64,000 bases of DNA from Candidatus Nanoarchaeia archaeon. Lineage in GTDB: Archaea > Nanobdellota > Nanobdellia > SCGC-AAA011-G17 > JACPNG01. Location: contig JAQTMY010000001.1 in NCBI GenBank assembly GCA_028714095.1, positions 2,147-66,146 on the forward strand, in the 5' to 3' direction. Positions within the stretch are counted from its first letter, which is position 1. The number at the start of each line of letters is the position of its first letter. Below are positions 20,856 to 63,535 of this stretch, in pieces. The position numbers and the translations under genes were made by a program. The notes under the pieces are model-generated. The model did not search any database and was not told the DNA's origin. It saw only the letters and a list, made by a program, of their open reading frames with translations.

Positions 20856-21387
20856 AGTTCTCCCCTATCAGTTTTCCAATAAAGTACTTTCCATTTACAG
20901 GGTAATAAACTGATATAGGAACACTAAATATGCTCTTGCTCTTAAAATTAGGTTTTGGATTTTGATAAATAATAAACTCATTGCAGTTCATTGGATAGTT
21001 TCCATAGTCTACCTTAAACATTTTTATACAATCTCCTTTCTTGATCTCAAAAGGAGCCTCAATAATCTCTATCCTGAATGTTCTAAACCCAAACACATCA
21101 TAATAATCCTCTTTGTTAACTTTTTCATTAAAGGCAATTATCTTTAAACTGTCTAAACATCTTTCTTCCTTATTCCTAAAGCTGCACTGGAGTTCTGGCA
21201 TTCTTGAAACATAGCTAAGTAAAACATCTGCTCTTTGATCAGCTAAATCCTGGGTTTTACTTTCAATGTCAGATTTTTGGAACTTAAAATAAAACACAAC
21301 AGCAAGAACCATAAGAATTATAATAACTATAACTACCATAATGGTTTCAATAAGTCCAATCTGTCCTTTCCTAGAATACTGTTTCAC
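20848..21387 (-). CDS. class III signal peptide (pilin-like) protein
   Basis: MKQYSRKGQ|IGLIETIMVVIVIII. Overlaps its neighbours by 8 and 17 nt. Confidence 0.55.
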   Translation of the reverse strand: MKQYSRKGQIGLIETIMVVIVIIILMVLAVVFYFKFQKSDIESKTQDLADQRADVLLSYVSRMPELQCSFRNKEERCLDSLKIIAFNEKVNKEDYYDVFGFRTFRIEIIEAPFEIKKGDCIKMFKVDYGNYPMNCNEFIIYQNPKPNFKSKSIFSVPISVYYPVNGKYFIGKLIGENYE

Positions 21388-22357
21388 AATCTCTCTCCCT
21401 AAGTCTATTATTTTCCTTATCTAAGTTATTTGCCCTGTCAAGATACTCTTCCGGATTAGTTACCTTTTGTAATAATAAATTCTTCAATAAACTATAGTCA
21501 CATCCACTAACCTTAGATGCTAACTCTTCAGCCTTGCCAGAATAAACTTTATTTATAACATTAAACTTCTCAACAGCCCTTTCATAGCTGCATTTATAGT
21601 TTGACGAAAAGATAGCTCCATACAACAAAGGCTTGCCAAAGAAAAAATACTGTTTATTGCCCTGTAATAATGCCCCTCTGCACTCCATATCATTCTCACT
21701 TTCACAATCCTTAGTTTTAATCTCAACAACCTCAAGATTCTCATTTTCTAGATTCTTAAGAGTATTAGACGTATCAATAAAGATGACTCTTACTCTGGAA
21801 TAATCCTCCAAAACCTGAGTTAGATAATTACTATCTACAGATTTTTTATATTCTACACTAAAAACATCAGGAATACTGCCCTCATTTACCCTTCCTGTTT
21901 TTGGGTCCTTAACTCCTTTAAGGTTTTCAGCTAAACTACCTCCAACCAAAACAAAGAGTGTTTCCTTGTCAGCCAAATAAAAGATGTTTCCAATTCTGTA
22001 AGGATATTTCCAGTCAGTCCCCCATATATAAAACTCACTGTTAAGTTCCTTGGGAGCAAAAATAATCTTGCTTGTCTTTAGCCTATTATTTCCAACTATT
22101 AAACTATCACAGTTAAATGGATCTAAACTTATCTTATCCTTTGTGTAAAAATTAGCAGGAATTGTTGTTTCTCCAGATATTGAAAAAGATATCAGCATAT
22201 CCTCCAATGTCCTTGTTTCAGTAAACTCAGTTATCTTATCGCTTGTCTCAACCTGTTTGAATGCAAACCTTACAAAGAAAGTCAATAATATAACTCCAAT
22301 AATCCCAATGAATATATATTTGAATACAGGAGAAATATCACCTTTTTTGTTTATCAT
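21371..22357 (-). CDS. pilin-like / class III signal peptide-like protein
   Basis: MINKKGD|ISPVFKYIFIGIIGVILLTFFV. ATGA overlap with the upstream giant gene. Confidence 0.4.
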   Translation of the reverse strand: MINKKGDISPVFKYIFIGIIGVILLTFFVRFAFKQVETSDKITEFTETRTLEDMLISFSISGETTIPANFYTKDKISLDPFNCDSLIVGNNRLKTSKIIFAPKELNSEFYIWGTDWKYPYRIGNIFYLADKETLFVLVGGSLAENLKGVKDPKTGRVNEGSIPDVFSVEYKKSVDSNYLTQVLEDYSRVRVIFIDTSNTLKNLENENLEVVEIKTKDCESENDMECRGALLQGNKQYFFFGKPLLYGAIFSSNYKCSYERAVEKFNVINKVYSGKAEELASKVSGCDYSLLKNLLLQKVTNPEEYLDRANNLDKENNRLRERDCETVF

Positions 22358-26106: not shown

Positions 26107-26909
26107 GCAAACCTATTCTCTCCCTGAATAGCAAACTGGAAAATATACTCATTTCCTTCTTTGGTTATTGTATAAACCTTGTCAGGATATGGTTTTTTCA
26201 GATAAAGTTTATATTCTCCTTTCTTGGCCAGCATATAAGTTAATGTATCAAAGTTTCCGCTTACAGCCTCTCCGCTAAATACATCCCATCCGTTTATTAC
26301 TTCCTGAGAAACATCATATAAATTTCCAAGGGGATAATCAAACATAACTTCAAATTTATCTTCAGATACACTTATATCTTTAGATTTTCCCTTAAGAGTA
26401 ACCAACCAGTTAACATTAAGAACAACACTATCAGGTCTTATAACAAATTGATAGTTTGGTTTATCTTGTACAATTATATTATAAGATTTAAGATTTCCAG
26501 TATTTTTTATCTCATTTAAACAAGAATCCATAAAATACCCTACATTTTCATTAAGCTGATCTTCCATATTCTTAAGAGTTAGCATCCTATTACTGCAGCT
26601 TTCTTTGTCAGGAATATTATAACATAAATAACTTATTTTATTGTCAGCATAAAGAATATAGGTTCCTTCGGGAGTCTCTAGATATCCTCCTTGCTTGCCA
26701 ATAGCCTGCAATAACGAATTAGGGCTGTTTAAACTATTATCATACCCGCAGCTTATTATTGCCTCTTTGATAGACTCCATCTCACCTTCAAGACTTTCAG
26801 TAGTAACAGGCATGAATATTGTCTTTCTACCAATTAAAAACAAAGCAACTAAAACAACTATAACTATTCCTAATATAACAAATAAAGTTACCTGACCTCT
26901 TTTTCCCAT
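26103..26909 (-). CDS. class III signal peptide (pilin-like) protein, 268 aa
   Basis: MGKRGQ|VTLFVILGIVIVVLVALFLIG. Homologous N-terminus to 62792..63535. ATGA overlap with the downstream giant gene. Confidence 0.6.
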   Translation of the reverse strand: MGKRGQVTLFVILGIVIVVLVALFLIGRKTIFMPVTTESLEGEMESIKEAIISCGYDNSLNSPNSLLQAIGKQGGYLETPEGTYILYADNKISYLCYNIPDKESCSNRMLTLKNMEDQLNENVGYFMDSCLNEIKNTGNLKSYNIIVQDKPNYQFVIRPDSVVLNVNWLVTLKGKSKDISVSEDKFEVMFDYPLGNLYDVSQEVINGWDVFSGEAVSGNFDTLTYMLAKKGEYKLYLKKPYPDKVYTITKEGNEYIFQFAIQGENRFA

Positions 26910-26956: not shown

Positions 26957-29900
26957 TCAAACATTTATACTATAGGCGGGGTTTATGTTCCCTTCACTAT
27001 CATTACATATAAAATAATACCTTCCCCCCTCCACAATAAATAAATGTTCCCCAACAACTTTCTCAGTTTCAGTTCCCTTACCAAAACCAAAATCACTCCT
27101 TGAATATTCGCAATCCGCATCCTCATCCAGTACAACATGTACAGTATTATCCTGCCTATATAACTGGGTTATTATTGGATAATAAACATCCTTGATAATA
27201 TTAAGATTAATAATCTGACTTGCTTTATTCCCAGCAACATCAATACATTCTATATTATAATTATAATTTCCCAATGCTAAATCTTCAAATTCCTGGCTAT
27301 GTATTATATTATCAGTTTCCTTAAATTCTATTCCATTATAGCTACATATTGCTTTTCCGTTCTCGGCCCCGCCGGAAGTTGCAACATTAAGGGTAAACGA
27401 ATTACTGTATAATGTTCCAGACTTTGGGGAATAATCCTCAATGACTAAAGTATCAGATTGTTTTAATGTTAATGGATAAGCATCCTCATTTACATTTTCA
27501 GCATTGTCAGAACATTTAAAATAATAATTAACTAACTTATCTTCAAACTTTAAATTAACATTAAAGCTGCATATAAATTTATTTTCTCTGCTTATACAAT
27601 TAGTTTCCTCTTTCATACCATCATAGTCCTCATTCTCACTAGAATATTTACATTTAGTTGGTTCATTTGTATAAATATTAATTAATATTTTAGTTAAATC
27701 TGCCTGGATATAACTCCCATCAAGAGGATCGCTTGTCTCAATAATTGGAGCAGTCAAATCTGGCCCTTCTTTTGTGTTAAATCTTATTAAATAAGAAGCT
27801 TCGTTGGCATTAGAAGTCTTTCCCTTACATCTTACATATAAATTATATTTTTTGTTTGGTTCAGTAAGAATATTTAATGAATGTTTTGTTTCATAATAAC
27901 CTTCTCCAAAATAACTTACCATTTCATTGTAATTATCATCTACATTTTCAGAAAACTTACATTGTGCAACTTTATCTGTTTTAATCCCTAAACTTAGTCT
28001 TGTATAAGCAGGAACATCTGGATTTATTTTATATCCTTTGGTTTCTTCATTTAACTTAAATCCCTTAGTTAAATTCTCAGGCCATGCAGAAATTATTGGA
28101 GAGCTTACATCTCTAGATTCTACCTTAACACAGGCAGGTCTGTCAGTTCCAGCATTCTCTTCTATAAACTCACACAAAGTTCCTAAACTTTCACATTTAT
28201 ATTTTGAACATTCTTTGAATTTTCCATATTCATTATCTACCTTTCCGCAATCTTCGCAATTATCCCCATTGTTTGGAATGTTCCACATATTGCATTCAGT
28301 GGAAACTACTCTTGATTCCTTTGTTGTTGCAAAAATATTTAAGATTGTAAACACAGCAAACACAACCAAAGCAACAGTAACAATTGTTCCAATCGTTCCA
28401 GAGCTAAATAAAGTTCCTAACCATCCCCCCCCAGACTCACTAGCAGTTCCTCCGGCCTGTATAATATTTCCAAATAAGATATTACCAAACGTAGTATCCG
28501 CTCCAGTAAATAAAGTAGCAACTTCAGCGGCAGCAATTCCTGCTGTCCCCAAAACCCCCAAAGTATCAGCACTCACATCAAAAAATCCGCCAGTAAATAT
28601 TCCAGTATTAATTTTATTATAATCTAAACCTTGATTTTTATTAATATCCTCATAATTTATTTTTCCAGCATACAATCCAGAATTAAGTTCAGCTAATTTT
28701 TCCTTGTTAATCAATAAAAGAGCTTCTGTAATTTTAGTCAAAGGCATATTTTTCAGTTCAGGATATTGATCCAAAAAATCACCAAAATCATCCTCAGGAT
28801 CTTCAATTACACTATCCCATTTTCTTGAAAAACCATCATTATTAAATTCATTCTTCCAGTTATATTTAGCTCCGCAATCCCCAGCAGCATTACACAAATA
28901 ATTGCTTAACTGCAGCCATTTATTTGAATAAGCTTCACATCCGCTTGAACAATCATTTGTATCTATGACAGAATCCTGGCTCCAAACCGTCAAAGCACTA
29001 TTAACTCCGTTTTCACAAATCTTAGAATTCTCTCCAAGATTGCCAGGAACAACCAAAGGCAAACATCGTCCATTGACTTCATTTAATTTTAATTGTTCTT
29101 TCTCCATATCTTCGGTCTTTGTCGTATTCAAGGGCAGCCAGTAACAGTCATTATTTTTAGACAAACAGCATTTAAGATCATTTTCCATTGCATTTGCATA
29201 ATCTATAACTTCTCCTTTGTACAAATCATCATCGTCATAAGTCATAGGGATTAATTCATAAGCAGAGTTGCATTCAGTCATACATTTTTCATAATTATTT
29301 ATTTTGCAGGAAGCCTCTCTAAAAGTTTCACCATTAACAGTAACGTCTGCATAAACACAAAATTCATTTCTGTAATCTTCACATGGCTCCTCAATCTCCT
29401 CGCCATTAATGCATATATGTCTGTAATGCCTGCTTCCAACAGAATCTAAACCAGGACCAGTAGCAGAATCATAAATACACCAGGACTCTCCATTCTTCCT
29501 GAAAACTCCAGTACCTTTAGTATTTTCATCCTTATAAGTACTCTCACAGTTTATGCTATAGCAGTCAACTTTATTTTTTTCCTCTCTGCATTTAAGCCCT
29601 TTCTGATAATCACATTTCTTGACTAAACTTTCTTTATTTCCGCAGCTGTCAAAAGAATAAACATCTCCCTCATAACATTGGTTATAGCTGTTCTTAGTGC
29701 ATCCACAAAAACCTACATCAGAACATAATTTATTTTCATAAAATTCTCCAGAACATGAATTGGAAGTTGTATACTTACATCCTTCATCCAAACAACAACC
29801 ATAAATTCCTTCTTGGCAGCTTAAACTGCATGAACTTTCTCCAGTTCCTTCCTGAAAAGTAAAATCTAAATTATTATAATCATTTGCTGTTTGCTCACAT

Positions 29901-30286
29901 TTAAACTTATTGACATAACTGCACTCAGTTCCTATCTTACAGCAACCCTCCTGGCATTTGGAATAAGCACTACAGTCAGGACTTGAAAAAAATTCTCCGC
30001 CTTTTTCAGTGCATTCCTGTTTAGAAGTATTGTCAAAACATGAACCTTCAGATTTTAAAAAACAGCAGCCATACTCCTCTGCCTTGACATCCTTAAAATT
30101 TAATAAAGAAATTGAGAAAATAGCAACAATTATGATTATAATTTCAAATAAAGCCTTAGCTCTCGCAAACCTCTCTTTCATAACATAAACAACAATAAAA
30201 CTTATTTTAAATAGTTTACTAATGAACATAATCATCCAGATTGGAGGGATTAACAACTCTTTTTGGATCACAATAACTCTTCTCAA
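26957..30286 (-). CDS. giant cysteine-rich secreted/membrane surface protein, paralog B
   Basis: The likely true start is the internal Met at 30181 (MKERFARAKALFEIIIIIVAIFSISLL... signal peptide), giving about 1074 aa. Same conserved blocks as paralog A. Internal Gly/Ala/Thr-rich hydrophobic region with one clear 22-aa hydrophobic helix. Confidence 0.6.
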   Translation of the reverse strand: MRRVIVIQKELLIPPIWMIMFISKLFKISFIVVYVMKERFARAKALFEIIIIIVAIFSISLLNFKDVKAEEYGCCFLKSEGSCFDNTSKQECTEKGGEFFSSPDCSAYSKCQEGCCKIGTECSYVNKFKCEQTANDYNNLDFTFQEGTGESSCSLSCQEGIYGCCLDEGCKYTTSNSCSGEFYENKLCSDVGFCGCTKNSYNQCYEGDVYSFDSCGNKESLVKKCDYQKGLKCREEKNKVDCYSINCESTYKDENTKGTGVFRKNGESWCIYDSATGPGLDSVGSRHYRHICINGEEIEEPCEDYRNEFCVYADVTVNGETFREASCKINNYEKCMTECNSAYELIPMTYDDDDLYKGEVIDYANAMENDLKCCLSKNNDCYWLPLNTTKTEDMEKEQLKLNEVNGRCLPLVVPGNLGENSKICENGVNSALTVWSQDSVIDTNDCSSGCEAYSNKWLQLSNYLCNAAGDCGAKYNWKNEFNNDGFSRKWDSVIEDPEDDFGDFLDQYPELKNMPLTKITEALLLINKEKLAELNSGLYAGKINYEDINKNQGLDYNKINTGIFTGGFFDVSADTLGVLGTAGIAAAEVATLFTGADTTFGNILFGNIIQAGGTASESGGGWLGTLFSSGTIGTIVTVALVVFAVFTILNIFATTKESRVVSTECNMWNIPNNGDNCEDCGKVDNEYGKFKECSKYKCESLGTLCEFIEENAGTDRPACVKVESRDVSSPIISAWPENLTKGFKLNEETKGYKINPDVPAYTRLSLGIKTDKVAQCKFSENVDDNYNEMVSYFGEGYYETKHSLNILTEPNKKYNLYVRCKGKTSNANEASYLIRFNTKEGPDLTAPIIETSDPLDGSYIQADLTKILINIYTNEPTKCKYSSENEDYDGMKEETNCISRENKFICSFNVNLKFEDKLVNYYFKCSDNAENVNEDAYPLTLKQSDTLVIEDYSPKSGTLYSNSFTLNVATSGGAENGKAICSYNGIEFKETDNIIHSQEFEDLALGNYNYNIECIDVAGNKASQIINLNIIKDVYYPIITQLYRQDNTVHVVLDEDADCEYSRSDFGFGKGTETEKVVGEHLFIVEGGRYYFICNDSEGNINPAYSINV

Positions 30287-50093: not shown

Positions 50094-50237
50094 ATGGCAA
50101 AAAATGAAAAAGTAAAAAAATTTTTATTGGAAGTTCCGGAAGAAATCTGGAATAAATGGAAAGACAAGGTTCCTCGTTCTGTATCTTTGAATAAAGCATT
50201 AATTGAATTGCTAAAAAAAGAGGGGGAGAAAAAATGA
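50094..50237 (+). CDS. small (47 aa) ribbon-helix-helix-like protein, not in ORF track
   Basis: MAKNEKVKKFLLEVPEEIWNKWKDKVPRSVSLNKALIELLKKEGEKK. ATGA overlap with the next gene. Confidence 0.3.
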   Translation: MAKNEKVKKFLLEVPEEIWNKWKDKVPRSVSLNKALIELLKKEGEKK

Positions 50238-50992
50238 AAAAGTTCTTCTTATTTGCTCTTGTTGGAATTTTCTTTATGTTATCTTTTAGTTTTGTATCCG
50301 CAGCACGCCTCCCGACAGTCGGAGGAGATGAGGGTGTTTGGGGAACGGTGTTGAATGATTATCTAAATGTTTCATTAAATGAATCAGGAGAAATCCGTCC
50401 AGCTAATCTAACTTTCGCGCAAAAAGTAACTTTTGCTTTTGGAGAAATTATAGACAATGTTGTTGATGGATGGATTACTATCACTGGAAATTTGAAAGTA
50501 ACCGAAGATGCGGTCATTAATAAAAGTTTGAATGTTACTGAAAACATAAATGCAGAAGGAAATATGACTGCAGATTATTTTATTGGTGATGGAAGTCAAT
50601 TAACTGGAATTAGCAGTGGCGGGGGGGGCTTGATATCTGATGTTAATATTACATCCGGAACTTATACAGGAGCAATAACTTCTGGGGGGGATACTGGCTA
50701 TAAAGCTGCAGATGATATATGTGATTCTGAATTTTCAGGAAGTCATTTCTGCACAGAATTTGAAGTAGCTACCTGGAGCTCTAAATCTATTGATGGAGAA
50801 GATGCATGGGTTATTGCAGGAAGTCCAAAATATGTTCCAGCAGACATTCCGGTTAATGATTGTAATGGCTGGACTCATGGGAGTGCAGGAACTTATCTTG
50901 GAAATTACTGGCATTTTGGCTCAACAACTGGAGGTGATGGCAGAGCAATTCAGTGTGGAACATCATTGAAACTTGCCTGTTGCTCTTATTAA
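50234..50992 (+). CDS. secreted protein with tail-fibre-like GDGSQLT motif and Cys-containing C-terminal domain
   Basis: Sec signal peptide. YFIGDGSQLTGIS is shared with the downstream giant protein. Confidence 0.5.
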   Translation: MKKFFLFALVGIFFMLSFSFVSAARLPTVGGDEGVWGTVLNDYLNVSLNESGEIRPANLTFAQKVTFAFGEIIDNVVDGWITITGNLKVTEDAVINKSLNVTENINAEGNMTADYFIGDGSQLTGISSGGGGLISDVNITSGTYTGAITSGGDTGYKAADDICDSEFSGSHFCTEFEVATWSSKSIDGEDAWVIAGSPKYVPADIPVNDCNGWTHGSAGTYLGNYWHFGSTTGGDGRAIQCGTSLKLACCSY

Positions 50993-50994
50993 AC

Positions 50995-53900
50995 ATGAAA
51001 AAAATAGTTATTTTAATTTTTTTAATACTTTTCTTGGTTGAAATTGTTTCTGCATCTACATGGGTTAATAATCCCAGTGATTGCCCTACCTCTGCACAAT
51101 CACAAACCTGTTCGGGAAGTGATGTTGTATGTGGTTTAAACGGAGGAATAACTTATTGTTATAATCCTTCTTCATTAATTCCTCCTTCAAGTTCTGCAAA
51201 CAGTACAACCTCTTACTCAAGTAGTTTTGACGGAGGATATATTTTAGATTGTGATTCTTACGATGGTTCTGCTCCTAATTGTGATAATTCTGGAAATTTT
51301 TGGTGTGATAGAAGTGAAACTTGTTATTCAACAGCATATAGAAATACTTTGTGCACAGCAGACACATGGGAAACAGCTACTTGCGGAACATGTAGGACTG
51401 GATATTTTGATTGTTACGGTGACACTAACTGTGAAAGCACATCAACTTCAGATTGCCAAGGCAGTAATAATAATCATTACAGTACCGGAACATGCAATAC
51501 AGATTTAAGTGGAGGCGCTTCAGGAACCTGTGTTTGTGATACAAATTATTATGCATGCGACGGAAGTGAAACAGATTTAGATGGCTGTGAAATCCATACA
51601 GGAAGTTCATGTTCATTAGGAACAGGAACATATTCTGGGTCTTGCTATGGTTCAGTAGGTGAATGTACTTCTTCTACAAACTCTGATTGTAATAATGATG
51701 ATTCTGATAGCAACATAGGAACCTGTAACGGAGCTGACGGATGTGAGATAATTTCAGGAGCAAGTTGTGGAAATGGTACTGGAACTTATGCTTCTCATCA
51801 GTGCATTGAATCAAGTGGAAATTGTACAAGTTCTGGAACTAGGCTTGATTGTAATAATGACGATTCTGATTCTAATACTTTAACATGTAATGGGGCTGAT
51901 GGATGCGAAGTAACTGATGGAGGTGCCTGCACTGTTGGAACCTTGCAAGGAACTTATGATGGTTGCAGCTGCGTTGTTACGCAATCAAACTTCAAAACAG
52001 GAGATGAAACATCATATTCAACAGATAATGCTCTTCTTTGGGGTTCACAATATGGAACAGGTTATCTTATGAATTTCACCAATGGGACAGACATAAAATT
52101 TGGAGTAAACAATTCAGGTTGTGTTGTTTTTCCAGATGGAACAACACAATGTACAGGAACATTACTAACTGATTTCACAAATGTTGCTTATATAAACCAA
52201 TCAAATAATTTTTCAGAAAATCAAGATTTCTCTTCAAATATTACTGTGGAAGACACAGGATCTTTTGGATTTTTGGGAAGTTTGGTTAACAGAATTACTA
52301 AATTATTTGTTATTGACATTGATGCTTCAGGAAATGTTAGCATTGGTGAGGATTTAACAGTTGGTACAAATACTTTAGTTGTAGACTCCAATAATAATAG
52401 GGTAGGAATAGTGGAATCTAACCCATCAACAACATTAGATGTCAATGGAGGTGCGCGTTTTTCAGGAACAACATCTAACGTAGAAGGAGAATTAGTTTAT
52501 AATAATGTAGGGGGTTATTATCAGTATTATAATGGTACGGCATGGGTTACCTTAACAGGTGGAGACGCAACTTTTACAGGTACATTATGGTCTCAAGATG
52601 GAAACAATATTTTTTATAATGACGGCTCAGTTGGTATGGGGGTAACAGCACCAACACAAAAATTAGATGTTAATGGAAATTTAAACATCTCAGGTTATTA
52701 TTATGGAGATGGGAGTCAGCTAACAAACATTTCAACTTACAATTCAACTTATGATATCTGGGCATACAATCAGACAACTCCTGCTATGGATTATACTGAT
52801 GAAATAAATTTAAGCTTATCTTCAAGAATTGATAATATTGCCGAGGATAATTCATCATGGAATGAGAGCTATGCAGATACAAAGTATGCAAATATTTCTT
52901 GGAATTATAATCAGACAACCCCTGCTATGGATTATACTGATGAAATAAATTTAAGCTTATCTTCAAGAATTGATAATATTGCCGAGGATAATTCATCATG
53001 GAATGAGAGCTATGCAGATACAAAGTATGCAAATATTTCTTGGAATTATAATCAGACAACCCCTGCTATGGATTATTCTAATAGTCTAAATAATTCCTTG
53101 ACCACATGGGTATCCTCAAATTACTTACTCACTTCAATATTTGATTCAGAAAATATATCAATTTGGAATGCAATAAATTCAGGCTTTAATCAATCATTAG
53201 CTGATGTATTATATTATTCAGTAAATAATCCAAGTAATTATATAAATAAAACAAATCTTTCTGAATTTACAGATGACTTAGGAAGCAGGGGATATGACTC
53301 TTTGTCTAATTTTACAAATGATTTAGATTTGTCTGCATATAACCAGACAGATCTGGCACTTGAAATAAATTTAAGCTTATCTTCAAGAATTGATAATATT
53401 GCCGAGGATAATTCATCATGGAATGAGAGCTATGCAGATACAAAGTATGCAAATATTTCTTGGAATTATAATCAGACAACCCCTGCTATGGATTATATAG
53501 ACTCTGTTATCAGTGATGATAATGACAGTTGGTCCTCTACTTACAATTCAACTTATGATACAAAAGCAGATTATCAATTTACAAATAATAACTTTAATGG
53601 CTCAGGAAACATTGAAACTACAGGAAGTATTGGAATTGGAACAACAGCATCTGCAAATAGTAGAATCAAAGTGGATATAAATAATCCTTCCGGTCCTGCT
53701 TATACAATAATTGAAGGTTATACTGCTTCTACAAGAATACTGTCTTCTTTGGTTTTAACTACTAATACAAGTAGGGGAAAAGGGATATTAATGGAAGATA
53801 CTCAATATAATGAAACTTGGTATACAGGAACTCCTTATTTCTCGAGAAATTATCAAATAGGGTATTATAATGCAGCATTACTTTATGACGGAAATGGGGG

Positions 53901-56900
53901 TGGAGAAAATGCATCAGATCCTTTGAATGCATACATGACAATAACTACTTCTGGAAGTGTTGGTATTGGAACGATTTCACCAACACAAAAATTAGATGTT
54001 AATGGAAATGTAAACATCTCAGGTTATTATTATGGAGATGGGAGTCAGCTAACAAACATTTCAACTTACAATTCAACTTATGATATCTGGGCATACAATC
54101 AGACAACTCCTGCTATGGATTATATAGACTCTGTTATCAGTGATGATAATGACAGTTGGTCCTCTACTTACAATTCAACTTATGATATCTGGGCATACAA
54201 TCAGACTACTCCTACTATGGATTATATAGACTCTGTTATCAGTGATGATAATAACAGTTGGACCTCTACTTACAATTCAACTTATGATATCTGAGCATAC
54301 AATCAGACAACTCCTGCTATGGATTATATAGACTATGTTATCAGTGATGATAATGACAGTTGGTCCTCTACTTACAATTCAACTTATGATATCTGGGCAT
54401 ACAATCAGACAACTCCTGCTATGGATTATATAGACTCTGTTATCAGTGATGATAATGACAGTTGGTCCTCTACTTACAATTCAACTTATGATACAAAAGC
54501 AGATTATCAATTTACAAATAATAACTTTAATGGCTCAGGGAATATGACCACTACTGGAAGAATTGGTATCGGAACAACCAATCCAAGTCAGATGCTAACT
54601 CTTTACGAGCAGGATGGTTCTACAGATATTAGACTAGATACAGGAGCATCACAAGGGTTTTATTATTCTGACATTATGAATAATTATAATACCAACAACG
54701 CATTTCAGATTACAACCGGAGGAGGGAATATAATCTCATCAACTTCTCACGGTTACAAAACTACAATTGGGGGTGGGGACGCTATTCTTGTTGTTTCTTC
54801 GACAGATAAAAATATTCAATTAACAAGTGATGTTGGAATAGGAACTTCTTCTCCAACACAAAAACTTGATGTAAATGGAAGCATAAATGCAAGCGGGGAT
54901 TTGTTTCTTTCTAACGGCACTAATTCTAAAATAGAATTTTATGGAGGATTAATTTTTTCAGATGATTATTCCTCTACAGCAAATGCACGGATAGCAGCTT
55001 CAGGCGATAATATTTATCTTCAAAATACCAATTCTTCAGGGGGAATAGTCTTTAGTGGAACAGGAGGTACATCTATCGAAGGAGATATTATTTTAAGCAC
55101 AACTGGAAATGTCGGAATCGGAACAGCAAGTCCGACAGCAAAACTGGATGTTAATGGAAATGCGGTTGTTGAAGGAAGCTTAAATGTCACGCAGAACGCA
55201 ATTGTAAACGGAAATGTTGGAATTGGAACAGCTTCTCCGACTGCAAAACTTGAAGTTGTTGGAAATGCAGTTACAAACGATATAACAAACTGGACTGCCC
55301 AATCAGCTTCTGGAACAAGTGCTTGGGATTCTGTGACTTATGGGCATGAATTATTTGTTGCGGTTTCAACTTCTTATCCCAGGGTCATGACTTCTACTGA
55401 CGGTATAACCTGGACTAACAGAACTGCATTTTCAGCAGATCCATGGAGATCAGTAACTTATGGAAACGGATTATATGTTGCTGTTGGTGATGGCGGAGCA
55501 ATCATGACTTCCCCTGAGGGGATAGCATGGACAGGAAGAAGTGGTGGAACAGACGATTATGTTTCTATAATTTATGCAAATAATTTATTCGTCGCTGTTG
55601 GTAATCGTGGCGATCATGAATTAATAACTTCTTATGATGGAATAAGCTGGAATGTTAGAAGTCTCCCTGCAAATAATGAATGGGTCGGAGTAACGTATGG
55701 AAATGGGACGTTTGTCGCTGTCAGTAATAATACTGGTGCTGCCAATCAGGTTATGACTTCTACTAATGGTATAGACTGGACTCTAAGAAATGCATCCAAG
55801 GTTGCTACTTGGCAGTCTGTAACTTATGGAAACGGATTATTTGTAGCCGTCGCATATGATGGGGATGTCTCGAGTTCGCCAGATGGGATAACCTGGACTA
55901 ACAGAACAGCATCTTCAGCAAGTACGTGGAAATCAATAGCTTATGGAAATGGGAAATTTGTAGCGGTTTCAATTGACGGGAACATAATGACTTCCCCTGA
56001 TGGGATAAGCTGGACTGATCAAACAGCTCCAGAGGCAAACTCTTGGCAGTCTGTAACTTATGGAAATGGGAAATTTGTAGCGGTTTCATCTGATGGAACC
56101 AACCAGGTCATGACTTCAGGGGACATAGAAGGAAATCTTTTTACACTTAGTGACTCCGACGGAACCTGCATCCACAATCCAGAAGCAGGAAGTGAAACAA
56201 TTTCATGTTCTTCAGACAGAAAATTAAAAGATAATATTACAGATGCTACTCCAGTATTGGATGAACTTGAAAAAATAAAAGTCAGAGATTACACAATTAA
56301 AGCTTCAGGAGTAGAAACAACAGGAGCAATTGCACAGGAACTACAGGAAACAAATCCGGACATGGTTCATGAAGAGAATGGAGAGTTATTTGTTGAACAG
56401 CCAAACCCATGGAAATTACTGAAAGCAATTCAGGAGTTAAGTGCAAGAATTGATGCTTTGGTTGGAGGGACTTATTCTGTTCAAGTTAAAAATGTTAATC
56501 AAGATCAAATTGGGGTCGCTAAAATTGGAGTTAATGAAACTGAAGGTTATGTTGAATTTAATAAAGAGTTTTCTGAAACTCCGGTTGTGACTGCTACAGT
56601 TATTGGCTTGCCTAGTTTCTTTTATGGAGTGGATGAAATTACTGCAAAGGGATTTAAGATTTTGATTAGTTCACCACAAGATAAAGAAATAAGTTTTAAT
56701 TGGCGTGCTTCAGGAGAGACTTCAAGTAGTGAAATAGATTATAATCAAACTCTTAGTGAAAGTTTAGAATCAAATATTAATATCTCTGAGAATGAAACTC
56801 TTGAGGTTAATATAACTATTCCTGAGGAAAATGAGAATATGAGTTCTAATGAGACTATCGAAGTCCTTGAAGAGAATACTACTTTAACAAATGGAACTAA

Positions 56901-57105
56901 TTTAACTATTCCTGAAATAAATGAAAATATTACAGAGAGTAACGTGACTTTAAATGAAACTATTAAGGTTAATGAAAATGTCACTAAAAATCTAAGCGAG
57001 GGAATAATCAATCAATCAAAGTCTCCTGAAGAGAATTCAGATACAAGCATTATGGTAAACAAAAAAGATTATCTGGAGGGAGATGTTAAACATTTTAAAC
57101 AATAA
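50995..57105 (+). CDS. giant (~2050 aa) phage-tail-fibre-like surface protein: Cys-rich modules, tandem repeats, BNR propeller, S74-type intramolecular chaperone domain, sequon-rich tail. The frame is interrupted by one in-frame TGA at 54292..54294
   Basis: Signal peptide MKKIVILIFLILFLVEIVSAS from 50995. The two track ORFs (50953..54294 and 54319..57105) are in the same frame. Repeated DCNNDDSDSN.TCNGADGCE modules. 39-42-aa tandem repeats. 6x S.DG(I)(T/S)W Asp-box. SSDRKLKDNITDATPVLDELEKIKVRDYTIK, the S74 ICA hallmark. Confidence 0.6.
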
Positions 57106-58125
57106 ATGTCAATTAAAAAAAAACTTATTTTTCTTGAAATAATAACTTTGCTAATTTTAATTCCATTAGTTTATGCAAACAGTTATGGATCTAGCACCTA
57201 CGGAAATACTATTTATGGAGGAAACGAAAGCTCTGTTTTATATTGTGGTGACGGTGTATGCAATAATGGAGAAACTTGTTCTTCATGTTCTGCTGATTGT
57301 GGAATCTGCAGTGGAGGATCCAGGGGGGGTGGAGGGTCTAGTGGTGGTGGAGGAAGTTCAAATATTACAACTTACCAATGCTCTTTAGATTCAGATTGCA
57401 GAACAAATCAATATTGCTTTAATCACACCTGTTATAATGCAGAATGTTTTGATGATTCTTCCTGCAATGTAAAAAAAGGAGAAATTTGCTGGAATCATAG
57501 ATGTGTGAAATTATTTGATATGGAAATATTGAGTTTTGAGTCTCCTGTAAAGGTTGGGGAATTTTTTAATTTTACTTATTTTGTTAAAGCTGTAGCTGAA
57601 ATAAATGGTGATGTTCAGATTGATTTTTGGATTGAGAATAAAGATCAGAATAAAATTGCTTCTGGAAGAGATACAATTTATATGTCCAGTTTTGAAGAGA
57701 AAACAAAAGCCAAAGAATTATTCTTACCGAGTGATCTTTCTTCAGGAAGTTATATGTTTTATATTCAAGTAACTTACGGCACATATACTGCTGAAGCTCA
57801 CAGGAATATAGAAATAAACATTGATGAAAATGGATTAGCCACAATAAGTCTAAATTCAGAACTAAATTATTTATCTATTTATTTTCTTTCCGCACTAATC
57901 GGACTGGGAGTTTTTATTGTTTGTTTAATTTTCTATTTGGAAAGAAAGAAAATAAAAAAAGGACTAATAAAAGAAGAAAAATGGGTTAAGAAACACAAAA
58001 TCTCAATTTTGGTTTTATTTTTATTAATTATCATTGGAATTTTGATTTATTATTTTAGATGGGACCGAGTTATAGTGGACTGGATCAAGGAGGTTGTTTA
58101 TTGGATGAAGAGTAGACTCGCTTAA
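57106..58125 (+). CDS. Cys-rich secreted protein with Gly-rich linker, beta-sandwich-like domain and C-terminal TM anchor
   Basis: Signal peptide, then CGDGVCNNGETCSSCSADCG, a GGSRGGGGSSGGGGSS linker and two C-terminal hydrophobic helices. Confidence 0.5.
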   Translation: MSIKKKLIFLEIITLLILIPLVYANSYGSSTYGNTIYGGNESSVLYCGDGVCNNGETCSSCSADCGICSGGSRGGGGSSGGGGSSNITTYQCSLDSDCRTNQYCFNHTCYNAECFDDSSCNVKKGEICWNHRCVKLFDMEILSFESPVKVGEFFNFTYFVKAVAEINGDVQIDFWIENKDQNKIASGRDTIYMSSFEEKTKAKELFLPSDLSSGSYMFYIQVTYGTYTAEAHRNIEINIDENGLATISLNSELNYLSIYFLSALIGLGVFIVCLIFYLERKKIKKGLIKEEKWVKKHKISILVLFLLIIIGILIYYFRWDRVIVDWIKEVVYWMKSRLA

Positions 58126-58213: not shown

Positions 58214-58287
58214 GGGATCGTAGTTCAACCTGGGAGAACACCAGACTGAAGCTCTGGACGTTGTGGGTTCAAATCCCGCCGATCCCA
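58214..58287 (+). tRNA. tRNA-Phe (anticodon GAA)
   Basis: 74-nt cloverleaf: acceptor GGGATCG/CGATCCC, D stem GTTC/GAAC, anticodon stem CCAGA/TCTGG with loop CTGAAGC, T stem GTGGG/CCCGC with loop TTCAAAT, discriminator A. No encoded CCA. Confidence 0.9.
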
Positions 58288-58340: not shown

Positions 58341-58847
58341 ATGAATAAAAAAGGTGCAATTGAACTTTCAATTTCTACTATAGTTATAGTTGTAATCGGA
58401 GTTACATTATTAGTATTAGGATTAACATTTGTAAGAGGAATCTTCAAAAAAGTTGGAGGCCTTACAGATCAATCATTTCAGGCTGGAGAAAAATTAATCC
58501 AGGATCAAATGTCTTCAGATCAGAAATTCTACATATCAGGAATCACATTTGAACTTGAATCAGGAGGAAGCCAGACAATCTATACAGGAATACAAAACTT
58601 TGGCGACCCCGGAAAGACAAATTCATTTGAATTAAAAGTTGAGCCAGGACAAAATCTTGGGAAGGATTGGTTTACCTTGCCTGGGAAAATGAATGTAAAA
58701 GTAGGAGAAAGAAAAGCATTTCCTTTTGTAGTCACAGTCCCTAAAGGAACAACCCCTGGAAGCACTTATACCTTTAATATTATTGCATACAAAGATAGCC
58801 AGGAATATGACAGCCAGGCAATAATAGTTAGAGTTGCCTCAGAGTAA
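58341..58847 (+). CDS. class III signal peptide (archaeal pilin-like) protein
   Basis: MNKKGA|IELSISTIVIVVIGVTLLVLGL. AAGAGGTGA RBS upstream. Confidence 0.6.
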   Translation: MNKKGAIELSISTIVIVVIGVTLLVLGLTFVRGIFKKVGGLTDQSFQAGEKLIQDQMSSDQKFYISGITFELESGGSQTIYTGIQNFGDPGKTNSFELKVEPGQNLGKDWFTLPGKMNVKVGERKAFPFVVTVPKGTTPGSTYTFNIIAYKDSQEYDSQAIIVRVASE

Positions 58848-59502: not shown

Positions 59503-60009
59503 ATGGCAAATCTAAAACGTGATTATATTATTAATTTGAGAAGAGAAATCAATAAAGTACCTAGGTATAAAAGAACCTCTAAGGCTGTTAAAGCATTAAA
59601 GGTTTTTGTAAAGCAACATATGAAAGTTGATGAAGTCAAAATTTTATTAGAGTTAAATAATCACATATTCCAGAACGGAAGGAAAAATCCTCCTCACAAA
59701 TATGAGATTACATGTTTAAAGATTGAAGATAAAGATAGATCAGTTGCAAGAGTTAACTTGAAGGGATTAAAAGTAGAACCAGAAATTAAAAAAGAAGAGA
59801 AAAAAGGTTTGGATAAAATAAAGGAAAAACTAACTGGAAAGGAAAAAGAAGAAAAATTAAAGGAAGATATTCTTGAACACAAAGAAGATAAAACAATAGA
59901 AGAGAAAATAACTAAAAAACCTCATCTAGACAAAGAAACTAAAGAACCTGAAAAAGCTCATGCTCACAGAAAACAAGAACAGGTTATTGGAACTAAGGCT
60001 GATAAATAA
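59503..60009 (+). CDS. rpl31e: 50S ribosomal protein L31e with Lys/Glu-rich C-terminal extension
   Basis: …DYIINLRREINKVPRYKRTSKAVKALKVFVKQHMK…NGRKNPPHKYEI…. Confidence 0.8.
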   Translation: MANLKRDYIINLRREINKVPRYKRTSKAVKALKVFVKQHMKVDEVKILLELNNHIFQNGRKNPPHKYEITCLKIEDKDRSVARVNLKGLKVEPEIKKEEKKGLDKIKEKLTGKEKEEKLKEDILEHKEDKTIEEKITKKPHLDKETKEPEKAHAHRKQEQVIGTKADK

Positions 60010-60020: not shown

Positions 60021-62795
60021 TTAAAATACTCCACAATCTTCTAACCACTTTCTAGTTGTCATCCGAATTAAAGAGTTTAAGCGAGGATTTTTAAGTTCAT
60101 AACCTCCCGAATCATCTGGTTTAGGTTCTCCTCCACTCCAGGGGAAATAAACTTTTGTTCTTTGTTTCAGAAATTTCTTTCCTAGTGATTCCCCTGCATT
60201 ATAATATAATGAAGACCAAAAAAAGATTTCATCATCAGTGAGTTTATTTAGTTCCTCTTCTCCATATAAATCTTTAAAATCTGATAGAAAACTATATTTT
60301 CTTTGAGCAAAAACGCCGGCAACAGCAATAAGCCCATCTCGCAATGTCTCAAACTCTGCAGGAGTTACTCTCTCAGTGTCTGCTTGATTCATTATAGACT
60401 TGATTGATTCTATCCTCAAAGTCGAGGGGATAAACCTCCCATCCATAAGTCTCCTTTGTTCATTCTTGTCTCCCAATGTATCCAACCCAAGATAAAGATA
60501 TCCTCCCGCTGGAACATTATGCCCAAAGTAATATGTTGAAACTACAGCCCCCCCTTCAGCCATATAAGTAACAAACACCTCGGAAGGGGCCACTTTAATC
60601 CCATATTTATTATTATTAGCAGAGTCAGAAGCCTCATATATCCACCTTGCCAAATCATCTTCTACATATTTTTCATTTAAGAATCCAAAATAAGATCTTG
60701 GCCTCACCCCCCACTGCTCTTGAATATTTTTTTTAACATTTTTTATTACAATCGGATCAACATCAATACCTCGCTGGATAGTCTTTTCCCAAGGGTAACT
60801 AACATCCAAAATAACCCCTCCTTCTTTGTTAGAAAGTAAAAACTCATCAAGTACATATTGGTTATTAAGAACAAAATCATAAGAAACTAGGTCTGGGTTT
60901 TCCTTATTAAAAGAGAATAGTACATCTTCTTCACTGGAAGAAACTTTTACTCTACCATCGGTCAGTTCCACATCTCCTTCAACACTAATATCAAAAGGAT
61001 ATCCAAACAAGTATTTGGAAACCTTCTCCTGATTGTATATCGCTTCTTCATCTAACCTTGCATTATTTTCTTCATCCTCTTCCTCATCCATTCCAAGTAT
61101 ATTATAATGGAGAGTCTCCCCCACTCTCTCAGCCTCAATATTTAAAGGAAAAAAAGGCAGCATATAATCATCATCATACTTAATATTGTTTCTAACATAA
61201 TCTTCTCTTAAATCTCTCAGATTAGCAGGGACTAGCAGATTTCCGGTTTTGCTTCTTATTGAATCTCCATTCCATTCTTCCGTGATTATAGAATTTTTCA
61301 TTACATTATAATATCCTGTAAGCTGGAAATAAAAAAAGCAAGAATCTAAAATAGGGCCCACTTCTTCTGCAGATAATTTTTCCTCAAGAACGGAGTGTAT
61401 ACTTGATGCACCACCCCCCCCATACACAACCTTGATCTTTGGATAATAAACCTCTTCTACCTTTTCCAATTCCTCTTTTCCATACGTTGTCTCCAGTTTT
61501 TTAATTTCAGAATCAATAATAGATTCAAATTCTTCACGATTCTGTATTACTTTCGAATTAAGCAATTCCTCCCAAAAATTATACTGATGCAAAGCTTCTG
61601 AACCCCCAGCAACAGAAAAATCATACATAGTTTTATCCTTACCCAGGTCATTATAGGTTTCCTTTAAGGCTTCATCCAAACCTTCACCGGAATCAATATA
61701 CGTTTTTAGTTTAGCTAGCATCCAGAAAATAGGTTTTTTATCTCTCTGCTCCTGGTTTATTCCTTCTTTTTTGTTAATCTCAATTCTCCCTCCGTTAACA
61801 GACACCTCAAAGAGGGTTTTTTTAGTTAAGGGAGACGCATAAATTATGATACTATCTATGAACTCTGGGAATATTTTATTTCCCTCCACTAGATTAAAGC
61901 TAAAGCCAGAACCCCCAGCCCAAATCTTTGCAGATCCCTGTGCAAAATAGTTCTCATCTTCATGTTTTGAATAATCAAAATTATTATCATAGTACATATT
62001 TACTTCAGGGCCCTTTACCCTAAAAATAAATCCATTAAAATCAACTTTTGTATTACTTGAAATCTTATCCAATTTTCCATTTAAAATCGTAATTGAACCA
62101 GAGCCCTTCTCTAACCCCCCCACCTTAATAGAATCTTCTCCTAAAAATGCACGGAAATGTCCAGTAATCTGGTTTCCTTTTATAACTAATTTACCATCAA
62201 TAATCTCAAGGTCCTTAATTCCAAAAAGTTTTCCTTCAGGGATAACGGATAAATCTATTTTCTTACCTAACAATTCAGATTCAAGGACCTCCCCCTCTCC
62301 ATTAAGTTTTATCCAACTGTTGGGATCAAAATTTTTAGAATCATAGAGAGATTTCAAAATAATCTTTTCTTCCTTACCATCTTTTTCAACAACCTTTTCA
62401 ATATTTAATTCAATTGATCCCTCTTTTTTTAAGGTTATTTTTGTGAGTCCATCTTGTTTTTCAAATCTAACATTCCTAACAATAATCCAAGAATCTTTCA
62501 GCTTAATTCCAACCAGATTCCCAAGGGTTAAGGAATTCTTAACATCTATACTCGCATCAACAACCTTTCCTTTTTCATCAACAACCAAATTTCCAATTTT
62601 AACTCCACTTTTTAAAAATCCCTTAATCTGATTATATACCCCCACTAATTGGGTAGGAACCTCTTGCTCACCAGATTGATCTTCTAAAATAAGATTTCCA
62701 GAAGGATCAACCCTTAAAAAAAACTGGGAATCTCCAGTTACGATCGGGAGTACAATCAAAATACAAACAATCCCAAAAAGACACTTTCTTATCAT
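60021..62795 (-). CDS. giant (924 aa) secreted protein of unknown function
   Basis: Sec signal peptide MIRKCLFGIVCILIVLPIVTG. ATGA-coupled to the upstream pilin-like gene. Confidence 0.5.
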   Translation of the reverse strand: MIRKCLFGIVCILIVLPIVTGDSQFFLRVDPSGNLILEDQSGEQEVPTQLVGVYNQIKGFLKSGVKIGNLVVDEKGKVVDASIDVKNSLTLGNLVGIKLKDSWIIVRNVRFEKQDGLTKITLKKEGSIELNIEKVVEKDGKEEKIILKSLYDSKNFDPNSWIKLNGEGEVLESELLGKKIDLSVIPEGKLFGIKDLEIIDGKLVIKGNQITGHFRAFLGEDSIKVGGLEKGSGSITILNGKLDKISSNTKVDFNGFIFRVKGPEVNMYYDNNFDYSKHEDENYFAQGSAKIWAGGSGFSFNLVEGNKIFPEFIDSIIIYASPLTKKTLFEVSVNGGRIEINKKEGINQEQRDKKPIFWMLAKLKTYIDSGEGLDEALKETYNDLGKDKTMYDFSVAGGSEALHQYNFWEELLNSKVIQNREEFESIIDSEIKKLETTYGKEELEKVEEVYYPKIKVVYGGGGASSIHSVLEEKLSAEEVGPILDSCFFYFQLTGYYNVMKNSIITEEWNGDSIRSKTGNLLVPANLRDLREDYVRNNIKYDDDYMLPFFPLNIEAERVGETLHYNILGMDEEEDEENNARLDEEAIYNQEKVSKYLFGYPFDISVEGDVELTDGRVKVSSSEEDVLFSFNKENPDLVSYDFVLNNQYVLDEFLLSNKEGGVILDVSYPWEKTIQRGIDVDPIVIKNVKKNIQEQWGVRPRSYFGFLNEKYVEDDLARWIYEASDSANNNKYGIKVAPSEVFVTYMAEGGAVVSTYYFGHNVPAGGYLYLGLDTLGDKNEQRRLMDGRFIPSTLRIESIKSIMNQADTERVTPAEFETLRDGLIAVAGVFAQRKYSFLSDFKDLYGEEELNKLTDDEIFFWSSLYYNAGESLGKKFLKQRTKVYFPWSGGEPKPDDSGGYELKNPRLNSLIRMTTRKWLEDCGVF

Positions 62796-63535
62796 TTCTT
62801 AATTAAGAATCTAAACTCCTCCTTAGTTCTTTTACTAATAAGAGATAATGTTAACGAATCTGGATCTTCAAGCAAATTCAGAGAAGGGGATACTTCAATA
62901 ATAAAATTTGATTTGGATAAGTCTTCCAAGCAGGTTATACAAACCCCTTCTATATTATTTTTTGAATAATAATCTACTAAATCTTCAGATAATTTATGCA
63001 AGTCCTTAATATCCGAATCAACAAACTCCTCAGCTTCCAGATTAAATTTTTGATAAGAACTCCCATTAATAAAGAGGTTATAACCCAAAGCAAGCTTAAC
63101 CTTATCATAATCTATCTCTACGCTTACTCCCTCCGCCAGAAGTTCAAAATCCGTACTATTTCCCGCTAAAGAGATTGAACTCAAACATCCCTTAATATTT
63201 TCATTGATATACCCAGAAGTTTCATCCTCAATCCTATTAACTGAAGGGATATACTTATTCTTACTAACAGAATAATATGGAATATCCAAAAGTGCAGATT
63301 TTAGAACTTCGTTTGGAATTTTATAATAACCCCCGTGCCTAGTCACATATAGCAAAGCCTTCTCTCCTATTTCCTTCAAGCAAGATTTAACATAAGGATT
63401 AAATTTCTCAAGCATAAGAGAGTTCATATCTGATTGATTTCGGGAATTTTCCCTAAAAAACAAAAACAAACCAACCACAACCAATATTAGGATTCCAATG
63501 ATAACAAATAAAGTAATCTGCCCTCTTTTCTGCAT
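62792..63535 (-). CDS. class III signal peptide (pilin-like) protein, 247 aa, paralog of 26103..26909
   Basis: MQKRGQ|ITLFVIIGILILVVVGLFLFF. Confidence 0.6.
   Translation of the reverse strand: MQKRGQITLFVIIGILILVVVGLFLFFRENSRNQSDMNSLMLEKFNPYVKSCLKEIGEKALLYVTRHGGYYKIPNEVLKSALLDIPYYSVSKNKYIPSVNRIEDETSGYINENIKGCLSSISLAGNSTDFELLAEGVSVEIDYDKVKLALGYNLFINGSSYQKFNLEAEEFVDSDIKDLHKLSEDLVDYYSKNNIEGVCITCLEDLSKSNFIIEVSPSLNLLEDPDSLTLSLISKRTKEEFRFLIKK

Follow-up and report, generated by a model that had tools for sequence, protein, structure and literature searches.

We analysed a window of 64,000 nucleotides, the whole stretch presented above, from a 509-kb contig in the short-read metagenome-assembled genome (MAG) of a Candidatus Nanoarchaeia archaeon, a member of the DPANN archaea. 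At its centre of interest lies a gene for a fibre-like surface protein in the frame 50995..57105 of the forward strand, which the initial annotation had read as a single intact protein of about 2050 residues. The archaeal origin assigned to it was borne out by the source genome and by genes for aRF1, S19e and L31e in the window, and the frame translates as had been described. However, the list of open reading frames (ORFs) divides it into two ORFs in the same frame, 50953/50995..54294 and 54319..57105, parted by an in-frame TGA, and GenBank holds two coding sequences in place of one intact gene. We number fibre residues from the Met at 50995 and count the TGA as codon 1100; the full read-through product has 2,036 residues. 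The fibre gene is the third of a co-oriented block of four genes that is followed by a tRNA gene (Table 1).

Table 1. Features of the fibre gene and its cassette, with positions in the window.
Feature	Position	Strand	Details
47-aa ORF, first cassette gene	50094..50237	+	MDD5253523.1, PHG05_00255; overlaps next gene by 4 nt
252-aa secreted companion protein	50234..50992	+	MDD5253524.1; signal-like N-terminus, Cys-rich C-terminal domain
Fibre gene, upstream part	50995..54294	+	MDD5253525.1, 'hypothetical protein', 1,099 aa; ends at in-frame TGA
141-bp (47-aa) shaft repeats	52765..53466	+	tandem pair 52765-53046, dispersed third copy 53326-53466; period 141, 99% matches
102-bp (34-aa) tandem array	54061..54570	+	4.2 copies, 95-97% identity; contains nonsense codon
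In-frame TGA, codon 1100	54292..54294	+	sister repeat copies have TGG (Trp); single G-to-A difference
Fibre gene, downstream part	54319..57105	+	MDD5253526.1, 'tail fiber domain-containing protein', 928 aa
Seven-bladed beta-propeller head, EPTP/DUF6242 type	55288..56118	+	fibre aa ~1432-1708
Peptidase_S74 intramolecular chaperone auto-processing domain	56188..56466	+	PF13884; AlphaFold model residues 333-417
H-type-lectin-fold beta-sandwich	56500..56715	+	after S74; AlphaFold pLDDT ~95 and 89
Disordered acidic C-terminal tail, N-x-S/T-rich	56716..57102	+	pLDDT <50
339-aa membrane protein	57106..58125	+	signal-like N-terminus, Cys-rich ectodomain, transmembrane segments 253-281 and 293-324
tRNA-Phe (GAA)	58214..58287	+	downstream boundary of cassette

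A Peptidase_S74 domain with a Ser-Lys dyad had been expected at about residues 1700-1850, and profile comparisons found it there. The Pfam family matched with 35.2 bits against a cutoff of 22 (E = 1.5e-8), and a profile of the family matched solved chaperone domains from a tail fibre (8jov, 6e-11), T5 pb1 (6f45, 1e-10) and MYRF (7dc3, 1e-5). The SSD..LK motif was aligned in these matches, with SSDRRIK of 6f45 paired with S1740-D-R-K-L-K1745 of the archaeal protein, whose SSDRKLKDNI lies at 56209-56238. All ten of the ten family members that cover the site keep S-D-x-x-L-K. From this alignment, Ser1740 (56212-56214) is the predicted nucleophile and Lys1745 (56227-56229) the predicted general base, with Ser1739-Ser1740 as the putative scissile bond. 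In T5, the Thr1263-Ser1264 bond is cut with Ser1264 as nucleophile, activated by Lys1269, and cleavage unmasks the receptor-binding tip (PMC4690869).

Directly upstream of the chaperone domain we observed a beta-propeller, as had been proposed. It spans residues 25-301 of the AlphaFold model, with a predicted local distance difference test (pLDDT) score above 90, and has seven blades, since six W.SVTYGNG.FVAV strands are joined by one degenerate copy (YVSIIYANNLFVAV). In agreement with the initial annotation, which had given six S/T-x-D/N-G-I-x-W motifs, we counted six of the form S/T-x-D/N/E-G-I-x-W, five of them by regular expression and one (SYDGISW) in the translation. The canonical Asp box, S-x-D-x-G-x-x-W, has zero copies in the fibre, and the motif present is one residue shorter. 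On the propeller segment Pfam returned EPTP (PF03736; 45.4 bits against a cutoff of 21) and DUF6242 (34 bits against a cutoff of 29), which are propellers of binding or unknown function. There was no BNR, BNR_2, sialidase or glycosyl-hydrolase match to the propeller at E<=10, although matches of very low score may be lost to the filters of HMMER. Among solved natural structures, Foldseek ranked Ycf48 best (TM-score 0.70, ~15% identity), which we take to be an Asp-box-related propeller, and WD40 propellers scored close behind. The BNR/sialidase assignment made earlier for residues ~1440-1700 was therefore rejected at the level of profile and motif, as the domain, which has seven blades, lacks both the Pfam match and the canonical Asp box. 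The idea was not absurd; some phage homologues of the propeller are labelled 'BNR repeat', and Ycf48 is the nearest solved natural fold.

The same observations bear on whether the fibre could be a secreted or surface enzyme, that is, a sialidase- or glycosidase-like depolymerase with a catalytic propeller, as in endosialidase tailspikes. It was on endosialidases that S74 chaperones were first described, and the sialidase fold is an Asp-box propeller, to which the Ycf48-like fold and the 'BNR repeat' labels would correspond. However, sialidase propellers are six-bladed while this one has seven blades, the matching families point to binding or unknown function, WD40 propellers are nearly as close as Ycf48, and neither an enzyme profile nor a canonical Asp box was found at the threshold given above. 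We consider a catalytic propeller very improbable. The propeller repeat itself is very common, with 4,147 homologues, mostly in bacterial multidomain surface proteins, and most among the matches listed carry PF03736; the propeller head was not present in any archaeal relative of the cassette examined. With 42% GC, the propeller segment exceeds the remainder of the gene (28-37%), which may be weakly consistent with a recent module swap or foreign origin, although a composition rich in Gly, Ala and Trp also raises GC.

The initial annotation had missed what follows the chaperone, namely a lectin-fold domain and a sequon-rich tail, which place S74 internally. The first of these is modelled as a six-stranded beta-sandwich with the fold of HPA, SLL-2 and discoidin II. 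Its top Foldseek matches (SLL-2, 3wmp, 7e-4; then 4q56, 2cgy, 2ccv and 2vme) carry the names SLL-2, Helix agglutinins and discoidin II, with probability 1.0 and TM-scores of 0.6-0.73, and tip domains of an R-pyocin fibre and of phage tailspikes rank after these H-type lectins. The Pfam H_lectin match (PF09458) was not significant (E 0.62, 10.7 bits where the cutoff is 24). Conservation of the domain extends over ~20 representative clusters. H-type lectins are generally trimeric. In the tail, residues 1916-2036 (56740-57102) hold 15 N-x-S/T sequons where 4.4 +/- 1.7 are expected, and 24 Asp and Glu against 7 Lys and Arg; no hydrophobic or transmembrane (TM) segment was found in it.

The upstream part of the gene opens with a hydrophobic, signal-like segment (residues 1-26), in agreement with the signal peptide claimed for it, and continues through a Cys-rich region (residues ~22-345) and a beta-rich region into the repeat shaft. 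The first 400 residues contain 36 of the 38 Cys of the fibre. Of the repeated Cys-rich modules that had been described, the Cys-rich character stood, but the full DCNNDDSDSN..TCNGADGCE motif occurs twice rather than three times, and only its short core, GCE(I/V)..G..C, is present in three copies. The shaft had been given tandem repeats of 39-42 residues; its actual periods are 47 and 34 residues, and the 39-42-residue period is that of the propeller blades. One dispersed copy of the 34-residue repeat lies outside the array. Tandem Repeats Finder scored the shaft repeats at 611 and 818, and repeats and motifs are far beyond chance. The collar-like (I/V)GIGT segments were confirmed as five strict copies of (V)G(I/M)G(T/V)..P(T/S).KL(D/E)V.G, at 52630, 53959, 54832, 55111 and 55216. 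The whole fibre has 88 sequons against 50 +/- 6 expected, a number reached in 0 of 2000 composition-matched shuffles. This enrichment resides in the shaft and tail and not in the propeller, and would be typical of a glycosylated surface protein.

Comparison with viral proteins supported the phage tail-fibre architecture that had been proposed. PHROG tail-fibre families matched the fibre, with phrog_5668 spanning propeller and S74 (4e-16) and further matches to phrog_9942 and phrog_18345. The top match in BFVD was A0A6J7WX40, an 'intramolecular chaperone auto-processing domain' protein of an uncultured tailed phage, with 37% identity across propeller and chaperone (E 3e-38). The propeller is also found in jumbo phages and cyanophages, where the annotation of the protein reads baseplate wedge, Ycf48-like or host-specificity.

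We then considered the interruption of the gene. The TGA sits in copy 3 of the 102-bp tandem repeat, where the sister copies read 'STYDIWAYNQTTP', and GenBank has two proteins because of this single stop codon inside a repeat. The window was scanned for standard versus alternative code through the stop codons of its 50 long ORFs; TGA terminates 13 of the 50, so the genetic code is standard, and an alternative code in which TGA is read as Trp or Gly was ruled out. By sequence and hydropathy the downstream ORF lacks a signal peptide, so only the truncated shaft could be exported from the gene as sequenced, and this product of 1,099 residues would be devoid of head and chaperone. On the other side, the 928 codons 3' of the stop are wholly open in a genome of 33% GC, and the ratio of nonsynonymous to synonymous substitution rates (dN/dS) against the intact orthologue of the closest related locus (L001 in our numbering of loci) is 0.16 upstream of the stop and 0.20 downstream. 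Both halves are thus under purifying selection. As the downstream codons are open and dN/dS is alike on both sides, the lesion is either very recent, or polymorphic, or an artefact that arose when repeats of 95-97% identity were put together from short reads. The repeat unit spans 34 codons, so that deletion of the mutant copy would keep the frame and recover an intact gene. In a metagenome scan, the 102-bp repeat unit with TGR gave no match. Fibres in related loci with a mappable complete ORF are intact, for example one of 3,102 residues in locus L007, so the interrupted state is the exception among relatives.

A dead gene, the pseudogene remnant of a once-functional fibre from which at most the headless, chaperone-less shaft of 1,099 residues is made, would account for the in-frame TGA under a standard code, the two GenBank coding sequences and the second ORF without a signal peptide. 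However, a single transition is the sole lesion, it lies within a nearly identical tandem repeat of a short-read MAG, and loss of one 102-bp unit in frame would repair it. Consensus errors and strain mixtures are common in such genomes. Together with the open downstream codons and the dN/dS values, which are alike on the two sides, these points make a pseudogene a possible but doubtful explanation.

The other genes of the block also speak to the nature of the fibre. The small ORF that had been noted to overlap the start of the cluster is the 47-aa ORF. It belongs to a cluster at >=90% identity with 17 members from many samples and is 87% identical in L001. No ribbon-helix-helix (RHH) Pfam match was obtained at E<=10, and hhalign against the sequence of P22 Arc gave E 0.1 and 32% identity in the expected register. 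The ORF may encode a small DNA-binding, RHH-like protein, as the initial annotation had suggested. Across 15 sequences (P0244-P0258 in our numbering of proteins) this ORF is 78-96% identical, far more conserved than the fibre genes behind it; one member of its cluster comes from a contig of 22 kb that was binned, perhaps wrongly, as 'Candidatus Omnitrophota bacterium'.

The 252-aa protein carries a conserved 'RLPTVGGD.D.WGT.LN.YLN' module and, as had been reported, shares the GDGSQLT(G/N)IS motif with the fibre (GDGSQLTGIS once in the 252-aa protein, GDGSQLTNIS twice in the fibre). Its family gave 79 matches without a Pfam domain, and every organism name given was DPANN; we found no sequence relative in the PDB and no consistent Pfam signal apart from a sub-threshold match to a Chlorovirus glycoprotein repeat at the GDGSQLT motif. 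Other fibres begin with the N-terminal module of this protein. We also considered a diversity-generating retroelement that would act on the Cys-rich C-terminus of the 252-aa protein, and rejected it, as there was no template-like or inverted repeat in 49900-58300. No reverse transcriptase was present among the window ORFs scanned, which were those of at least 120 aa from ~17.8 kb to the window end (~17.8-64 kb).

The 339-aa protein, a conserved downstream partner with two TM segments that the initial annotation had missed, has homologues directly downstream of S74 fibres in loci L001, L005, L014, L017 and L018, and is a candidate membrane anchor or assembly factor.

The closest relative of the fibre, P0022 (1,357 aa, in L001), is encoded in the same four-gene cassette, beside archaeal ribosomal-protein (r-protein) genes and an insertion sequence element. 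In this locus the 252-aa protein is 85% and the membrane protein 63% identical to the proteins of the window, and P0022 itself is 74% identical over the N-terminal 490 residues, 84% in S74 and 70% in lectin-fold domain and tail. P0022, a 68-74% identical orthologue, has no propeller. The combined module of S74 and lectin-fold domain was found in five GTDB genomes, every one of them from DPANN (Woesearchaeota in three cases, Pacearchaeota in one and an uncultured archaeon in the last), and on six metagenome contigs. Among 1.84 billion representative clusters, ~20 cover the whole module, with proteins of up to 5,501 aa, whereas the S74 superfamily overall has 42,472 representative clusters. Intact relatives of the fibre reach 3,102-5,501 aa. 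Because relatives hold FG-GAP, LVIVD or lactonase-type propellers or Laminin_G_3 upstream of S74, the head position appears to be swappable.

The cassette occupies a different chromosomal site in each genome. DDE transposases lie directly downstream of it in L001 (5939-6925, IS240-type) and in L003 (4760-5902, DDE_Tnp_1), where the window has tRNA-Phe. An expanded locus of a Woesearchaeota genome (L005, 69-12208) encodes two proteins of 529 and 932 aa that share the N-terminal module of the 252-aa protein, one S74 and lectin-fold fibre of 1,028 aa, and two homologues of the 339-aa membrane protein.

The surroundings of the gene in the window are cellular, and include a class I aminoacyl-tRNA synthetase (aaRS), aRF1, ScpB, an HD protein, S19e, L31e, PCNA, rubrerythrin, a GT2 glycosyltransferase and an S-layer protein. 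Similarly, the cassettes of L001, L003, L005, L007, L015 and L016 sit among genes for r-proteins, GTPase, TFIIE, rhomboid and Cache-sensor proteins. No capsid, portal, terminase, sheath, tube or baseplate gene was found among the window ORFs scanned, and particle structural genes were likewise not found in the neighbourhoods examined at six related loci. The candidate context of a prophage or an extracellular contractile injection system (eCIS) was rejected on this basis. GC at third codon positions (GC3) is 0.17-0.28 in the cassette genes, against a window average of 0.32 and 0.41 in the adjacent aaRS, which suggests a compositionally distinct block that may be mobile or lowly expressed.

These data allowed us to weigh the possibility that the fibre serves a virus, a tailocin or a contractile injection system for receptor binding and is not a cell-surface protein. 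All its C-terminal modules are typical parts of phage or eCIS fibres, PGAP gave the downstream half the label 'tail fiber domain-containing protein', transposases flank the cassette in L001 and L003, and the GC3 of the cassette is below the window average. Against this stand the absence of structural genes from the scanned ORFs and the six loci, and the signal-like starts of the fibre, the 252-aa and the 339-aa proteins, which together with the two-TM partner fit Sec export and not the cytoplasmic assembly of virions. Given the signal-like N-terminus, the ordinary archaeal chromosome and the related cassettes among cellular genes, we regard the fibre as cellular, and a particle-borne fibre as improbable.

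The window is unusually dense in surface genes, with the S-layer protein (17852..20104) and several large secreted ORFs. Six ORFs have archaeal class III (type IV pilin-like) signal motifs, one on the forward strand (58341..58847) and five on the reverse strand (20403..20855, 20848..21387, 21371..22357, 26103..26909 and 62792..63535), with MNKKGA/IELS, KKGQ/TEII, RKGQ/IGLI, KRGQ/VTLF and KRGQ/ITLF as examples. The ORFs starting at 26103 and 62792 look like paralogues, each just upstream of a giant secreted protein. Three large reverse-strand ORFs (22354..26106, 26957..30286 and 60021..62795) encode 924-1,250 aa with little or no Pfam annotation; the first and third have signal-like hydrophobic N-termini, and the first, which opens with a Cys-rich stretch, gave no more than weak Y_Y_Y and Big_13 matches. 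A further ORF of 168 aa (59503..60009, forward strand; PHG05_00300, hypothetical in GenBank) has an L31e domain in residues 5-70 only, its C-terminal ~100 residues being unannotated.

Taken together, we read the locus, with moderate confidence, as a chromosomal DPANN cassette for a Sec-exported, trimeric, self-processing adhesin fibre that is composed of phage tail-fibre modules and is switched off, or mis-assembled, in this genome. Its module order would be a signal peptide, a Cys-rich base, a repeat shaft with collars, the propeller head, S74, the lectin-fold domain and the acidic tail. By homology to phage T5 pb1, K1F endosialidase and MYRF, we infer that after export three S74 domains would nucleate trimerisation of the fibre from its C-terminal end, possibly aided by the lectin-fold domain. 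Correct folding would bring Ser1740 beside Lys1745, and the Ser1739-Ser1740 bond would be cut. The fragment of S74, lectin-fold domain and tail (~297 aa) would then separate, leaving three propellers as an exposed distal tip that could bind a surface ligand. For an episymbiotic DPANN archaeon, this ligand would most likely be a glycan or a protein of a host or partner cell. The two-TM neighbour may provide the membrane anchor or act as an assembly partner. The change of TGG to TGA in copy 3 would turn the gene off, either very recently and possibly reversibly by loss of the unit, or only apparently, as an assembly or consensus artefact. In this reading, the domain identities, the interruption, the archaeal chromosomal setting and the conservation of the cassette are shown by the data, and export, trimerisation, cleavage, the choice of anchored end and the role in ligand binding or host attachment are inferred.

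Several points weigh against this reading. As sequenced, the gene is unable to make the full-length protein, and its product stops at 1,099 aa. The sole independent assembly that we found, the Logan contig SRR22315509 (L004), is 100% identical to the window over 3,004 bp and ends inside the fibre before the TGA. The signal peptide of the fibre is a prediction from hydropathy and sequence, and the protein has no TM segment besides the signal-like one, nor did we find a known archaeal sorting signal in it. The AlphaFold model is a monomer, so that trimerisation and cleavage are carried over from homologues. Classical S74 proteins have the chaperone at the extreme C-terminus, whereas here it is internal and ~290 residues follow. 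Finally, attachment to a host draws on the DPANN lifestyle and not on data from the source organism.

A fibre at the cell surface could also be structural or self-directed, for instance an S-layer-associated glycoprotein, a matrix or biofilm fibre or a shed soluble lectin, with no part in host recognition. The heavy sequon enrichment, the acidic tail and the surroundings rich in S-layer, pilin-like and giant secreted genes are in keeping with this, and the H-type-lectin-fold domain could bind the cell's own glycans. However, the architecture is that of a receptor-binding fibre, and rapid swapping of heads between close relatives and variation in repeat length are signatures of receptor-binding proteins under diversifying pressure and not of structural housekeeping proteins. 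We therefore judge a self-directed role unlikely.

The adhesin reading can be extended to a joint proposal, which we put forward tentatively and think less probable than not in its full form. Here, DPANN of the Woesearchaeales and Pacearchaeales type would have domesticated phage receptor-binding modules into a chromosomal, Sec-exported system of host recognition. Interchangeable propeller or lectin heads would set partner specificity, and the two-TM protein would anchor the fibre. The internal S74 would fold and then cut the fibre in the manner of MYRF, discarding a trimeric lectin 'foldon' or deploying a separate lectin. In-frame repeats would give length variation and reversible ON/OFF switching, of which the TGA unit would be a snapshot, and bacteria would have a parallel system in which the same propeller-S74 genes are inserted among core genes.

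How DPANN cells recognise and attach to their hosts is largely unknown, and few candidate adhesins come with a testable mechanism. The cassette supplies parts that can be tested in recombinant form, namely the predicted cleavage site at Ser1740/Lys1745, the swappable head and the lectin-fold domain, and it would be a clear case of phage receptor-binding modules used by cells instead of particles. Should the head prove to set the specificity for a partner, its type could be used to infer host range in metagenomes. There is also a lesson for annotation, as one stop codon in a repeat has left GenBank with two unrelated-looking proteins for one fibre.

Every module of the fibre is already known, and the downstream half was recognised by PGAP as a tail-fibre domain protein. 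In the literature we found no relevant description of S74 domains in DPANN or candidate phyla radiation (CPR) organisms, and none of a DPANN-restricted cassette. The features for which no description was found are the internal position of S74, with an H-type-lectin fold and a tail predicted to be glycosylated behind it, together with apparently interchangeable propeller heads and a putative dedicated two-TM partner.

Phage fibres and tailspikes such as T5 pb1, K1F endosialidase and phi29 gp12 are like the archaeal fibre in S74, the Ser-Lys motif, the upstream 'VGIGT' collar and a head immediately N-terminal of the cleavage site. Unlike these, the archaeal gene is chromosomal, with no virion genes found nearby, and its product has an N-terminal signal-like segment, a propeller as head in place of a beta-helix or bullet domain, and an internal chaperone, behind which come the lectin-fold domain and a long tail. 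The proteins of A0A6J7WX40 and phrog_5668 share the order of propeller and then S74, the former with 37% identity over 433 aligned columns; they are viral, and the post-S74 lectin, the Cys-rich base and the cassette partners were not detected in them.

Among the propellers, the head of the fibre, with its seven blades and an S-x-D-G-x-x-W turn in each, is best compared with those of Ycf48/HCF136, of BNR/Asp-box proteins, of EPTP (LGI1) and of DUF6242. The fibre differs from BNR/Asp-box propellers in the missing BNR Pfam match and in its Asp-box-like motif, which is one residue short, and is only ~15% identical to Ycf48. H-type lectins (the agglutinins of Helix pomatia and H. aspersa, coral SLL-2 and discoidin II) and R-pyocin tips have the fold of the lectin-like domain, which in the fibre has no significant sequence similarity to them and lies downstream of the predicted cleavage site.

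Bacterial chromosomes also carry propeller and S74 genes of this kind (P0090 and P0087, and also P0075, P0078 and P0157), which stand alone outside prophages. Proteins of the P0090/P0087 type have one or two copies of the same propeller and then a CSSD..LK S74, which lies near the C-terminus and is followed by low-complexity sequence, with no lectin-fold domain and no 252-aa or 339-aa partners. Both are fibre genes of 1,400-1,570 aa inside core gene arrays on bacterial metagenome contigs, P0090 (L010, 10001-14209) between EF-G and EF-Tu in the str/S10 ribosomal operon and P0087 (L012, 10001-14704) between PheT and GyrB.

The eCIS tail fibres draw on the same toolbox, as a catalogue of them lists S74, H-lectin/SLL-2-like lectins and beta-propeller lectins as modules on shafts (PMC12923769). 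At the archaeal locus, in contrast, no sheath, tube or baseplate genes were found and N-terminal baseplate-attachment domains were not detected; the N-terminus is instead a signal-like segment followed by the Cys-rich region. Finally, the intramolecular chaperone of MYRF is likewise an internal S74-type domain, whose cleavage parts an N-terminal trimer from a substantial C-terminal part, as it would in the archaeal fibre. In MYRF the C-terminal part is membrane-anchored and the N-terminal part is a transcription factor, whereas the archaeal fibre has no TM segment after S74 and both of its parts are predicted to be extracellular.

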